A DNA stretch of 64,000 nt, from the IMG/VR virus record IMGVR_UViG_3300027759_000071, positions 1-64,000 of that record, one strand, 5' to 3'. Both the position numbers and the translations under genes were made by a program. The notes under the pieces are model-generated. The model was not told where the DNA came from. It did not search any database and saw only the letters and a list, made by a program, of their open reading frames with translations. The stretch is from a virus. This document shows positions 29,100-44,000 of this stretch, in pieces (within the stretch, counting starts at the first letter, position 1; each line of letters starts with the position of its first letter).

Positions 29100-32000
29100 T
29101 GGCAAGATTAATACCTCGTAAACAGATTGAAGAACAACAAAATATTAGCGCTTCGCTTAGTATTAGAGAAAACGTATTTGTTGGGCAAGATGCCATTATA
29201 AGTGGTTCTTTATTTGTATCTCAAAGTTTTTTCTTTGGAAACGATACTGGTTCTATAAATGAAATAACTGGTTCTGTATTTTTAACAGGTTCATTGGTAA
29301 TTGATGGATTATTTCAAACAACAAACCCATCTGCAATATTTTCAGTAACAGCATCTAATGCATTGGAATCATTTGATACTACCCGCTATGGTGGAGTTTT
29401 AGCTAGAGATTTTGGTGCTAACGTTCCTACTCTTTATGTATCATCTACTGATGGTGATGATACAAATGATGGTAGAACAATTCAATTCCCACTTCGTACA
29501 GTTAAAAGAGCAGCTCAATTAGCAACTCCGGGATACGATGGTAGATATGGGTTGAGTAGTTCTTCATTATTTTCTGGATATGTAATAAGAGTTCAGGCAG
29601 GAACTTATTTAGAGGATAATCCTGTGATATTACCAAAGAACGCTAGTATATGGGGTTCTGGACTTCGTATTACAAAAATAAATGCATTAAATAAAGGAGA
29701 AGACCTATTCTATGTAAACTCTGGATGTTATGTAGCTGAGGTAACAATGGGTGGTTTGAGATTATTCCCAGACCAAATAAATCCTGTAAAAGGATTTGCT
29801 ATTGCTTTCCAACCTGGTGCATTTATTACAACATCACCATATATTCAGAACTGTTCTCAAATTTCAAACCAAGAGAATTCATTTACCGAACTTTACGAAG
29901 ATATTCCACCAGGAGGTGGTGGTCTTTATGTTAATGGTGATGTGATTGATCCCGATTCTCCATTGGCTTCAATGGTATTGGATGCTTACACTCAAATTTC
30001 TCCAAACGGCGTAGGTTGTTTGGTAAATGGTAGAGGTTTCATTCAGCTGGTATCTTTCTTTAATAACTTTTCATACTACGCAATTAGAGTAAACAATGGT
30101 GGACATGCTACATTAAACAACTCAAACATTTCGTTTGGTTTGTATGGTATGTATGCATCCGGTTCTCGTCTTATTTCTGGAAGTGGTGGTAACATCGCAG
30201 CTAGAGATAGTGTAAGAGGAACTTGGAGTTGTGTTGTTGATGTTTTAAATAAAGGATTAGAAAACGGATTACCTACAATAACAAAATTAAATACGGCTGA
30301 AGGTATTCGTTTAACATCGCCAGCATTATATACACAAAGTAGAGTATCTGCAGGTACTACATTATCAACTACCGCAGCAGATGAAATATCAGCAGATTAT
30401 ACGTTAATAAGTGAAATTGTTGATAAGGGTGTAACTAACTTTCCAACTCTATTAGCAAAAAGTTCTATAAAGGGATATGGATTTGATTCTCCATATAATA
30501 TTTTAGGAGCAGAGCAAATAACATCATCTATATCAGCATCGGTAGGAGATTTAACACAAATAAGTGCATCCTACGCAGCTATTTTAAGTATATTAGCAAA
30601 TGGTACTGGTTCATTTAATTTTAAATCTAATACAAGTGCTAGTAGACAAATTGGTACTGATGTAATTGAACAAATAGGAAATATTGCAACAAACTATACT
30701 GCATCGGTTAGCTCATCATTTGGTACGGTAATTAATATTATTACAAAAGGTGTTTCTGTTAAACCAACTTATATAGCAAACACAAGCGCTAGTATAAAGG
30801 GTGGAAGTGTTGAACAAACAATGTTGGGTGTAACATCATCTTTAGCAACAATAAATTCGGTAAGTGCAAGTTTTAGTATTGTTTATAATATTTTAGCAAA
30901 TGGTACTGGTAGTAATATTTTACAAATACCGGCTAATCATCAAAAATCGTTTGTAATAACTAATAACAATAGTTCTTCATTTAATTTTGAAGGAATTGGT
31001 AGTAATCCTACATTAACTTTATTTAGAGGAGAAACTTACAAATTCAATATAGATGCTATCGAAGATTTTGGTGGTATTGAATATCCATTTTGGATTAGAA
31101 CGGAGCAATTAGAAGGTATTACTGAAAAATATGATTATAATATTGGTATGGTAAATAATGGAGATAGTAGAGGTACAATAACCTTTACAGTACCATATAA
31201 TGCACCAAATAGATTATATTATGTATCTCAAAATAAAAGTTCAATGGGTGGTGTGATTGATATAGTAAACTCATCTACAACTCCATTCGACTTAATTAAA
31301 AATACATTAACATATCCAGCTACAATACAAAGTGGTTCGATAGCGAAAACAAACATTGATGTTGTAACAGCATACGAAATATTAGTAAATAACATAACAT
31401 TTATTCAAGATGAGGTAATACAATATGTATCATCATCTTGGAGTGGATTTTCATATCCAGAAGAAACTTGTAAAAGAGATGTTGCATATATTGTAAGTGG
31501 TTCGGCAAAAGACCTTTTATTTGGTGGAAATGAAGAAAGTATTAGAAATGGTTTATTTTATTACCAATACCCATCTCAGGCAACTACTACACAATTAGGA
31601 CCTACACTAACTGCTATGAAACATGCAGCCGAAGTTTCATTAAATTTAATTAGAGGTAAAGTATATGTAGAACCAATAAATGATGTAGTTGATGTTTGGA
31701 GTACAATCAGAGATAATAAAACATTTGTACAAAATGAAGTTATAACTTATTTATCATCATCTTGGTCTAATTTTTATTATAACGAAGAAAAATGTAGACG
31801 TGATACTGGTTACATATTAGATGCGGTAGCAACTGATATAAAATATGGTGGTAATGAAAGAAGTATAACTGCTGGTGAGTATTATTATCAATATCCATCT
31901 TTAGCAATTGTAAGAGGTGATGGTGATGGTGTTGGGCAATTAGGACAAACATCAGATGGTATTAGATATGCTAGTGGGTTAGTTGATAGTTTATTAAAAC

Positions 32001-41000: not shown

Positions 41001-44000
41001 CTTACAATTCATTGAGAGAAAACAAAGGATTTATACAAAGTGAATCAATTGCATATCTATCAGCAAGTTGGGCTAAGCATGATTATAATGAAACTACTTG
41101 TAAGAGAGATATTGGATACATTATAGATGCAGTAGCAACTGATTTGTTGTATGGTGGTAACGAAAGAAGTGTGATAGCAGGAAGATATTATTATGATTAT
41201 CCATCTCAAGCTACAAACGCACAATTAGAACCAACATTGACTGGTGTAAGATATGCAAAAGGAACGGCTATGAACGTAGTTGTTAATAAGCAGATATTTA
41301 CAGCATCTTTGGAAGTTCAATACGCATACGATTTAATAAAAGCTAACAAACTATTCATACAAAGTGAAAGTGTTGCATATGTAAACGTTAAATACCCTAA
41401 CTTAGATTATAGTGAAAGTAAATGTTATAGAGATTTAGGATATATCATTGATGGTGTAGCAACTGATTTACTTTATGGTGGAAATGAGAGAAGTAGAGAT
41501 AATGCAGATTACTATTATCAGTTCCCATCTCAAGCAAATGGGTTTGGTTCGCAAGTAATTCAAACAACGGATGCAATTAAGTACGCAGCTAGAATAACAA
41601 CGGCATCTATTAGTAGTACATTAATAGCAGCACCTTCTATCGTACTTAATACTTTAGAAAACATTAAAGTAACTAACGCTACACAACTTGTAACATCATC
41701 ATTGTTTGGAACTGTGGCTGAAGCTAACGCAATATCGGCATCAATTTCTATTGTAGCAAATATAGTAAGAAATGGTACGGGTTCATTACCAACTTTAATT
41801 CCATATACAACTCAATCGGTTGATACTAATGTAATATACTCATATAATTTATTAAAAGCAAATATTGGATTTATTGTATCGGAATCAATAGCATATTTAA
41901 GTTCATCTTGGTCAACAGCATCTTATAATGAAGAAAGTTGTTCTCGTGACTTACGATTTATATTGAGTGGTTCGGCTGAGGATTTATTGTACAACGCAAA
42001 TTCGGCATCTATATTTAATGGTGTATTCTATTATCAGTTCCCATCAGCAGCAACAAGTTCACAATTGAATCAAACTCTTGATGGAATAAACTACGCAAGT
42101 AGATTAGCACAAAATATAGTACAAAACGTAACTTATGTAACTGCATCAGCAATCGTATCAGCATCATACGCATTGATTAGAAAAAATAGAGAGTTTATAC
42201 AAAATGAAACTATTGCGTATCTATCTTCTTCTTGGAGTACAGCATCTTATGATGAAGTAACTTGTAAAAGAGATGTTGGTCATATTATAGATGCGGTTTC
42301 TACGGATTTACTTTATGGTGGAAACGAAAGAAGTACAAACGCTGGGGTGTTCTATTACTTATATCCATCACAAGCGCAAGGTTCACAATTACAACCAACA
42401 TTAGCAGGTGTTAATTACGCAGGACAACTTTCTAAGAATGTTGCGGCATCATTAACATTTGTGACAGCATCTCAAATAGTATCAGCATCGGTTAATTTGT
42501 TAAGAAAGAATAGAGAGTTTATACAAAATGAAACCCTAGCTTACTTAACTGCTAGCTGGAGTACATTTGAGTATGATAAAGATAAGTGTAAGAGAGATGT
42601 TGGCTATATATTAGATGGTGTAACAACTGATTTATTATATGGTGGAAATGAAAGAGGTGTATTCAGCGGAGAGTTCTATTACAAATATCCATCTAAGGCA
42701 ATTATTGAAGGAGATGGTGATGGTGTAGGACAATTAGGGCAAACAATTGATGGTATAAACTACGCAAGTAGAATAGCACAAAAGATTGTAAAAAATACAT
42801 TGTTTGTAACAGCATCAGTAGAGGCATCCGCATCGTTTGATTTATTAAGAAAGAATAAATCATTTGTGGCAGCTGAAACTATCGCTTATGTATCTTCATC
42901 TTGGAGTAGTGTATATTATAACGAAGCAACTTGTAAAAGAGATGTAGGATATCTAATAGATGCAGCAGCAACGGATGTATTGTATGGTGGACAAGAAAGA
43001 ACTGTGATAGCAGGGCAGTATTATTACTTATATCCTTCTAACGCAATTAATTCAGGCGTACCATCAACTCTAAATCAATTAGACCCAACTCTTACTGGTA
43101 TCAGATATGCTGGAAAGGTATCCAAAAAGATAATAACCAATCCAACTTATTTAGTACCATCTGCATCATTATTACTAACAGCAAAATTGTTGACAGATAA
43201 TAAACAATTGATACAAAAAGAAACTATAACATTCTTAAGTTCCTCTTGGAGTAATTTAAAATATAATGAAGTAAGTTGTTCTAGAGATTTAGGATTTATT
43301 ATAGATGCAATCAGAACGGATTTAGTTTATGGTGGTAATGAGAGAAGTATTGAAGCAGGTTCATACTACTACAAATTCCCATCAGTAGCAATTGTGGAAA
43401 GTTACGCTGATAATACTGGACAGAAAAAACAAACGGTAGATGGTATTAACTTCGCAAGAGGAATTTCTGAAAAGGTAGTAGCAAATACTTTATTAACTTA
43501 TTTAGCACCGGCAACTAAAAGAAGACAAGCAGCTGAAAGGTTAAAATCTGGTAAGGATGAATTGAAACAAAGAGCAATTGGATATACAAATGGAGCATTT
43601 CCATATTTAGTATATAATGAGGCAAGTTGTTCACGTGATACTGGATTTATTGTAGATGCGTGTGTAACTGATTTATTATATGGTGGAAATGAGAGAGGAA
43701 TTGCAGCAGCATCTTCTTACTACGATGGCCAGTACGGAAGTGCAATAGCTGTGACTAGAGACCAATTATTAGAAACATTGGAAACAAATCGTTATCTAAG
43801 AACTAGAGCAGAGTTTATAGCAGCTGGTGCACCATTGGAATCATTTGGTTCTTTGATTGTGGCAACTGGTATTGACTACTCTTATAATGGTAGTGGTGTA
43901 ACATTTAAAGCACTTCCTCCAAATCAGGGTGGTAGTGGTGTTGCAAATCCATTATTTGAAATTACGGAATTGGGTGGTGGTAGAATCTTCTTCACATCCG

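Follow-up and report, generated by a model that had tools for sequence, protein, structure and literature searches.

In a 64,000-nucleotide stretch of viral DNA (positions 1 to 64,000 of the IMG/VR record IMGVR_UViG_3300027759_000071, hereafter the window), a single open reading frame (ORF) at 29099..44134 encodes a protein of 5011 amino acids (aa) that the ORF list and matches to PHROG profiles mark as a fibre-like virion structural protein; the gene and all its parts discussed below lie on the + strand. The organization of this protein is probably best explained as that of a nested, branched giant fibre in which the chain runs out and back and each domain is split between the two passes. The building block would be a composite 'rung' of ~160 residues assembled from two pieces that are apart in the sequence. 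One, the H unit, is a beta-strand followed by a 20-residue amphipathic helix, ~51 aa in all; the other, the core (C), has ~110 aa that would form five helices matching helices A/B, E, F and G of phycobiliproteins and a trailing beta-strand, with a CxRD motif at the bilin position of helix E. Each H unit would lie N-terminal to its partner core and the pairs would be nested as brackets: the chain goes out along successive H units, makes a turn and returns via an equal number of cores, with the strand of each H unit pairing with the strand after the partner core. This reading is supported by the equality and bracket balance of the two counts, the compactness and bridge parity of predicted structures, the covariation between H units and cores, and a subtype of H found at the predicted arm bases.

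Counts, order and subtypes of the H units and cores

The initial annotation of this DNA had counted by hand 22 CxRD cores and 22 H segments, and the count with hidden Markov models (HMMs) for both elements that it had proposed gives 22:22. A regular expression, C.RD, finds exactly 22 sites in the protein, and the core HMM delimits 22 abutting units of 105-118 aa (independent E-value, iE, 1e-35 to 1e-52) that are grouped into blocks of 3, 4, 6, 3 and 6. The H HMM recovers 21 strong units (iE 3e-12 to 4e-22), one of them outside the set from which the model was built, and a weak 22nd, the WSCVV unit at aa 354-389 (iE 0.024), which is strong in orthologues. The H unit turns out to be more than a bare helix, comprising a strand (IKVTN), a loop, the amphipathic helix and a terminal LPT. 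The blocks follow one another as H5-C3-H5-C4-H6-C6-H5-C3-H1-C6, precisely as had been read by eye, with the second and fourth H blocks each broken by a ~415-aa beta-repeat insert.

The contention that the position of a core within its block dictates its subtype likewise holds. In the window protein, SGSAxDL is present in 5/5 first-in-block cores and (F/Y)PxLxY in 5/5 last-in-block cores; among 26 unique homologues, SG[SA]AxDL is found in 92/128 first-in-block cores and at no other core position, and [FY]Px[LF]xY in 119/128 last-in-block cores vs 3/315 mid-block cores. The CxRD motif itself is kept in 570/571 cores of the homologues and in 22/22 cores of the window protein. The extra cysteines that had been noticed in the first H unit and the last core are both there, at residue 378 (H1) and residue 4855 (C22); they are not a pair conserved across homologues, and a conserved H1-C22 disulfide was rejected as both sites vary between C, V, A and I without strict co-occurrence.

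Balance between H units and cores across homologues

Two scans of IMG/VR yielded ~140 related loci, and the complete homologous giants were tiled with both HMMs at fixed thresholds. The number of H units equals the number of cores in 34/36 complete homologues (28/30 from the first scan and 6/6 from the second), with equal counts of 13, 15, 17, 19, 21, 22, 23, 24 and 25 spread over ~12 block architectures. If each H is taken as an opening and each C as a closing bracket, the equal-count giants form balanced words throughout, the running sum never being negative; N-terminal fragments always have at least as many H as C, and C-terminal fragments at least as many C as H. Furthermore, the arrays change by one unit in step, the middle arm appearing as H5C5, H6C6 or H7C7 and the end as H1C6 or H2C7. 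At the level of the sequences, the one-to-one matching of H units with cores is genuine, conserved and beyond chance, and it can be checked, as equality and bracket balance, in any new sequence.

So could the H units and the cores simply be unrelated, independent tandem repeats, a solenoid of the former and a string of beads of the latter, with equal numbers that are ancestral or coincidental? Each array is regular and has its own period, the homologues all come from one ancestor, and Pfam and PDB furnished no direct precedent here for a split domain. However, the copy numbers of tandem repeats normally drift apart, and separate arrays are not expected to shift copy number in step, so that the balance maintained in 34/36 giants over 13-25 units speaks against independence. 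The same can be said of the compact joint model of one H unit and one core with a shared beta-bridge (see below), of the covariation in the nested register, and of the existence of relatives in which C and H alternate. We find the notion of independent arrays quite improbable.

Predicted structures

AlphaFold2 (AF2) modelling of aa 3622-4470 (849 residues that encompass H18, H19-21, C14-16, H22, C17 and C18) with a multiple sequence alignment (MSA) of 28 sequences gave a mean predicted local distance difference test score (pLDDT) of 84 and a predicted template modelling score (pTM) of 0.73, a value that, for a model of 849 residues, is high were the units loose beads. In this model, the two-residue beta-bridges assigned by DSSP fall on the strands of four H units (H18, H20, H21 and H22) and on the segments that follow C14, C15, C17 and C18; H19 and the segment after C16 have none. 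Under the bracket pairs H21-C14, H20-C15, H19-C16, H22-C17 and H18-C18, each bridge is partnered and the strandless H19 meets the strandless C16; the set that shows this parity includes H18-C18, the members of which are ~720 residues apart in the sequence. The model of the tip unit, H22+C17 (99-sequence MSA), reached pLDDT 88.7 and pTM 0.86, and bridges occur in just two segments of it, the strand of H22 and the one after C17, so that in this model these must pair. A Foldseek search of PDB with the 849-residue model returned albumin-type noise only (E 0.03).

The fold of the core and the final globin helix

Structural comparison by VIA-align covered 48,161 chains, and 7/9 top rows were of the phycobiliprotein type (Z 7.6-8.7, which is not decisive for helical models; root mean square deviation 2.8-3.9 over 99-112 residues), with model residues 53-165 aligned to chain residues ~1-145. 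The top chains were photocobilin, the ApcE bilin domain, phycoerythrin, allophycocyanins and core-membrane linkers; for the matches to phycoerythrin, allophycocyanin, ApcE and photocobilin, Z was 8.2-8.7. Next in rank came the pore domains of colicins, and sensor globins. The best Foldseek matches in PDB were phycocyanins and phycoerythrocyanin, albeit weak (E 0.3-1), and the core HMM run against PDB aligned CkRDvgyildavatDllygg to R-phycocyanin alpha (E 1.6). At the profile level, 739 unique cores were compared by hhalign with four phycocyanins of Acaryochloris (P 6e-5, probability 65%); the alignment places core positions 2-109 on residues 33-149, such that CxRD falls on the bilin cysteine, in Cys82/84-x-Arg-Asp of the phycocyanins, on the equivalent helix. 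CXRD is the bilin attachment motif of phycobiliproteins and of some bilin biosynthesis-associated globins (BBAGs), which self-attach bilins (PMC10151467).

None of the globin-type matches extends to the final helix of the target: the core stops earlier, at phycobiliprotein residues ~145-149 or at helix G of sensor globins, and for this reason we read the core as a remote phycobiliprotein- or BBAG-like globin that is devoid of its final helix. The proposal of a globin-type core finds some support at the level of fold and profile. By contrast, the likeness of the H segment to the terminal helix of phycocyanin that had been quoted in its favour did not survive: in hhalign, the H units show no significant similarity to phycocyanin (P 0.53), and the EAN of the quoted match is found in just 2/22 H units. 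We infer that the H helix fills the position of the final globin helix because of the compact co-folding of the two pieces and the unsplit relatives described below. Unlike phycobiliproteins, the cores here show no match to PF00502 and no X/Y helices, occur in 22 copies within one virion protein, and have a non-contiguous final helix for which the separate, upstream H unit is the candidate.

Covariation and the pairing register

Mutual information (MI) between H and core columns was computed for ten proteins of canonical architecture. Total MI is 1372.7 for the nested pairing vs 1292+-18 for 400 random pairings, each imposed on all orthologues alike, and the top-30 MI is 5.94 vs 4.34+-0.23 for 400 orthology-consistent random pairings; on either measure, 0/400 reach the nested value. 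The nested MI is not reached by any of 300 within-arm permutations (0/300), and when the five tip pairs are dropped it is reached by 1/300 and 0/300.

These tests also bear on a register in which each core pairs with the H unit that follows it, in native globin order, with the leftovers closed round the joined N and C termini. In favour of such core-first pairing, the unsplit relatives and the 305-aa neighbour of the giant run core-then-H, and the C-to-H junctions show strand-turn-strand sequences such as TLTTNTDGNIKVTN. However, the core-first cyclic pairing was rejected because its MI is at the null level (1318.6 in total and 4.43 for the top 30), and AF2 places no strand after C16 beside H22. 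A further discriminating feature is a distinct subtype formed by those H units that lie within H blocks and are bracketed with a last-in-block core: the strand Lys is present in 5/80 vs 175/247, and Pro in 42/80; in the window protein, these arm-base units are H3, H7 and H19. Because the bracket model alone singles out these positions, the subtype supports the H-first bracket reading, which is also the only one to explain the H2C7 variants. In our judgement, core-first pairing is highly improbable.

A different challenge comes from the fact that phage fibres are usually trimers or other oligomers: H units and cores could pair between chains, through three-dimensional domain swapping in a dimer or a trimer, with equal counts but no intramolecular hairpins. 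An antiparallel swap, too, demands equal totals, and AF2 models of a monomer cannot tell intra-chain from inter-chain pairing. Nevertheless, swapping needs none of the regularities described above, be it the balanced bracket order, the prefix/suffix rule in fragments, the local in-step changes of blocks or the arm-base H subtype, and we consider it unlikely.

Apart from the usual oligomeric state of phage fibres, several considerations weigh against the nested, out-and-back architecture. The AF2 output consists of pLDDT, pTM and DSSP summaries, from which the physical pairing was inferred, and the modelled constructs were bracket-complete by design, which favours nested pairing. The first H unit is weak in the window's own clade, and of the two homologues with unequal counts, one (L021) has 22 C and 21 H along with an additional 144-aa gap; the other (L026) is an N-terminally truncated frame. 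The homologues are related by descent, which makes their balanced architectures less than fully independent; one deletion or duplication across a C/H boundary can yield some of the balanced changes; and the covariation could come in part from duplication history. With respect to the fold, Z values of 8-9 are reachable by chance for helical models according to VIA-align's own note, and PF00502 (Phycobilisome) finds no match in 99 H+C units at E<=10, nor in the whole protein or the record.

Proposed architecture of the window protein

Under the nested reading, the window protein would have four side arms of 3, 4, 6 and 3 rungs and a six-rung trunk in which H1, H2, H6, H17, H18 and H22 are paired with C22 to C17, respectively. 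The base of the whole tree would consist of the N-terminal domain together with the last 95 residues of the chain, which are proposed to rejoin it. The former (aa 1-353; 29099..30157) has a start motif of the right-handed beta-helix type (YVSSTDGDDTNDGRT..KRAAQLA) and, in an hmmsearch of PDB, matches the N-terminus of the lacto-N-biosidase beta-helix (E 1e-4 to 5e-3); the latter (43847..44131) is beta-rich and highly conserved, the alignment being nearly invariant there. The two correspond to positions 3597-3700 and 3876-3965 of the phrog_3442 profile, leaving a gap of ~175 profile positions, and it is in this sense that the suggestion of arms inserted in a beta-helix scaffold stands: the tree is found between a beta-helix-type domain and a C-terminal piece that are ~175 positions apart in the profile.

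Between these pieces, with H units and cores delimited by their respective HMMs and assigned by the bracket layout, the chain can be followed as follows. H1-H5 (aa 354-610; 30158..30928) would contribute H1 and H2 to the trunk and H3-H5 to the outward strand of arm 1, at the tip of which a 141-aa beta domain (aa 611-751; 30929..31351) occupies the gap of 146 between H5 and C1, with C1-C3 (aa 752-1084; 31352..32350; iE 1e-46 to 1e-48) as the return strand. H6-H8 (aa 1086-1245; 32354..32833), the first copy of the ~415-aa beta-repeat insert (32834..34075; TATYNP..FTCDMDGN repeats, in a gap of 416 within the H array) and H9-H10 (aa 1660-1761; 34076..34381) precede C4-C7 (aa 1769-2206; 34403..35716), the putative return strand of arm 2. 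Arm 3 would be made of H11-H16 (aa 2180-2482; 35636..36544) on the way out and C8-C13 (aa 2490-3160; 36566..38578) on the way back. H17 (aa 3161-3212; 38579..38734; iE 4e-22), assigned to the trunk, is followed by the second copy of the ~415-aa insert (38735..39979; also a gap of 416) and by a stretch (aa 3628-3838; 39980..40612) that comprises H18 of the trunk and H19-H21, the outward strand of arm 4; the return strand of that arm would be C14-C16 (aa 3850-4181; 40646..41641), and both stretches are included in the AF2 model of aa 3622-4470. Finally, H22 (aa 4184-4235; 41648..41803; iE 6e-22), part of the AF2 tip unit, would be the tip of the trunk, and C17-C22 (aa 4243-4916; 41825..43846) its return strand, with H22, H18, H17, H6, H2 and H1 as the successive bracket partners. 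In each rung, the old termini of the globin (the end of H and the start of helix A) would be joined either by a 17-residue linker, at the tips, or by the next rung, and the new termini of the permuted unit would be the two paired strands.

Arms of the SMC/Rad50 type also run out and return antiparallel, with the N- and C-terminal parts meeting at the base, and inserted domains in general have adjacent termini. The out-and-back likeness is an analogy only: unlike SMC/Rad50, the arms proposed here would be stacked split globins instead of coiled coils, branched, nested to a depth of 9 and built of circular permutants. No description of phycobiliprotein-like virion proteins or of nested fibre domains was found in the literature searched. 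If the pairing is real, this would be a long, branched, single-chain fibre design without a described counterpart, in which circularly permuted split globins are threaded recursively, two passes of the chain clamp each rung, and the length of an arm is set by the joint addition of one H unit and one core.

Unsplit relatives and the direction of the split

Divergent relatives (37-48% identity; L147-L157) possess alternating core-H arrays with a ~167-aa period. One of these (L149) has a single core-then-H unit within a beta-helix domain, and another (L148) has (C H)x7 immediately after the beta-helix start motif. The unsplit order is therefore core-then-H; plain nested insertion of such units would produce C..C H..H, whereas the order in the giant is H..H C..C. 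On the simplest reading of these arrangements, the units of the giant are circular permutants of the unsplit form, as opposed to products of simple insertion. Thus, the idea that domains were repeatedly inserted into one another needs to be amended: the nested, out-and-back branching is supported by the balance, the AF2 models, the covariation and the H subtype, but plain insertion is not, the order being reversed. As a separate observation, the core-H units of L147-L157 sit at differing points of the beta-helix domain.

The 305-aa partner gene directly 3' of the giant gene (44159..45076, + strand) had been presented as a contiguous core and H. The protein contains one core-like domain, without CxRD, at aa 89-195 (core HMM iE 6e-8; hhalign 87%, P 4.5e-6), and this part of the claim is upheld; the H-like stretch at aa 211-235 is weak (HMM iE 0.04; hhalign of the family vs the H units, P 0.23). 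The family shows no significant similarity to phycocyanin in hhalign (P 0.47). The gene follows the giant immediately at nearly every locus, and its counterpart in phage S-PM2 is p092. Residues 9-62 of the protein resemble a 111-aa ORF at 59349-59684 (27% identity, E 0.006), which fits a small beta protein with an inserted core domain.

The giants of T4-like cyanophages (S-PM2 p091, S-CAM1, Syn30 and S-ShM2; phrog_5342, 4527 and 701) are related to the window protein with HMM E-values of 1e-158 to 3e-190, and by BFVD fold matches with probability ~1. S-PM2 p091 (L086 6043-16059), from a cultured Synechococcus phage, has 3338 aa and resembles the window protein in having CxRD units and in being followed by a 306-aa gene. 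It differs in that it has five units, as opposed to the 13-25 units in nested order of the window lineage; four of the five recur every 131 aa, and an H-like helix (VSIVNTTITNGDTSSLP) immediately precedes the CxRD helix. The window lineage is further set apart by the absence of psbA from its six relatives that are at least 90% complete.

Bilin synthesis genes in related phages

Among the related records that are at least 90% complete, 5/6 encode a ferredoxin-dependent bilin reductase (FDBR), as does one that is 70% complete, and in 4/4 related records checked a heme oxygenase gene is located ~200 bp upstream. The reductase is nearest to PcyA (NF002760, E 9e-28, below the family cutoff). An example of this cassette is at 906-2031 of L073 (G004), and it is seen also in G001, G002, G003, G005 and G006, all of them phages of 190-270 kb with the giant gene. 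The psbA gene was found in 0/10 related records, including all six that are at least 90% complete, and the CpeT lyase in 0/5; the 82-kb fragment to which the window belongs, ~41% complete, lacks the cassette. The role of phage cassettes of hemO with pcyX or pcyA has been described as 'still enigmatic', BBAG-like acceptors being one named possibility (PMC11480375), and the relatives here likewise have heme oxygenase upstream of a PcyA-like FDBR, without psbA. The link between cassette and giant protein is co-occurrence in relatives alone, which is suggestive.

As a possible additional function, we tentatively propose that the giant protein covalently binds a bilin which the phage itself would make with its heme oxygenase and PcyA-like reductase. 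More speculatively, the giant, as a branched split-globin fibre, could be the missing acceptor for bilins supplied by the heme oxygenase and PcyA/PcyX-type reductase of the psbA-less phages; attachment at its 13-25 CxRD sites might be autocatalytic, as it is in BBAGs and ApcE, and would yield a pigmented, possibly light-responsive virion appendage. The CxRD motif may explain bilin synthesis by the related phages, and its conservation, along with the cassette in psbA-less relatives, would provide a testable answer to the question why phages of non-phycobilisome hosts make bilins. Light-dependent adsorption of cyanomyoviruses has been reported (PMC2984593), and the smaller relative of the giant in S-PM2 touches on this phenomenon.

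Inserted beta domains

In sequence, the 141-aa beta domain follows a cupredoxin-like pattern (..TLTLxRGxxYxF..PFxI..GTITFxVPxxAPxxLYYV..GGVIxIV). The clade of the window carries it at the arm 1 tip, and other clades within the H array of arm 2 (e.g., L062 aa 1145-1311); judging by this distribution, it is a mobile module within the scaffold. Gaps of 44 and 167 in some homologues were considered as potential sites of hidden H or core units, which was rejected given that the former is a loop and the latter the relocated 141-aa domain. The two ~415-aa beta-repeat inserts (TATYNPxxGxF..FTCDMDGN) are near-identical, and homologues have 0 to 4 copies at varied positions, mostly within H arrays, although a few gaps of ~424 aa directly flank a core block (L095/L096, L104/L107). 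Pfam returned nothing usable for the beta inserts and domains of the giant protein. Located at an arm tip or in an outward strand, these extra beta domains are likely binding modules.

The giant gene in its record and its neighbours

The source record is an 82-kb viral sequence, ~41% complete, with relatives of 190-270 kb, and the window has a G+C content of ~32%. The giant protein matches PHROG profiles labelled 'tail fiber / short tail fiber / virion structural', namely phrog_5342 (tail fiber; E 1.6e-158 and 3.2e-190), phrog_4527 (E 1.2e-131), phrog_701 (E 2e-98) and also phrog_18802; Pfam gave no match for the whole 5011-aa protein. A 6.9 kb megablast query found no close DNA-level relative among isolated phages, and the protein-level matches obtained by tblastn in the isolated phages are to T4-like Synechococcus phages only, at 23-34% identity. 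The giant gene has a head-tail adaptor-like gene upstream and collagen-like fibre genes around it. By these signs, its product would be a fibre or other appendage of a large tailed phage, aquatic and uncultured.

Two of the neighbouring collagen-like genes deserve mention. The second giant ORF of the window (45144-57638; 4164 aa) has a long collagen triple-helix region (PF01391, E 5.5e-147) in its C-terminal half and a weak match to a chlorovirus glycoprotein repeat near its N-terminus; the H and core HMMs find neither type of unit in it. At 18262-21345 there is a collagen-like tail fibre gene of 1027 aa (phrog_5073, E 3e-91), followed by a 652-aa ORF without an assigned family and then by a 739-aa ORF that matches phrog_4417.

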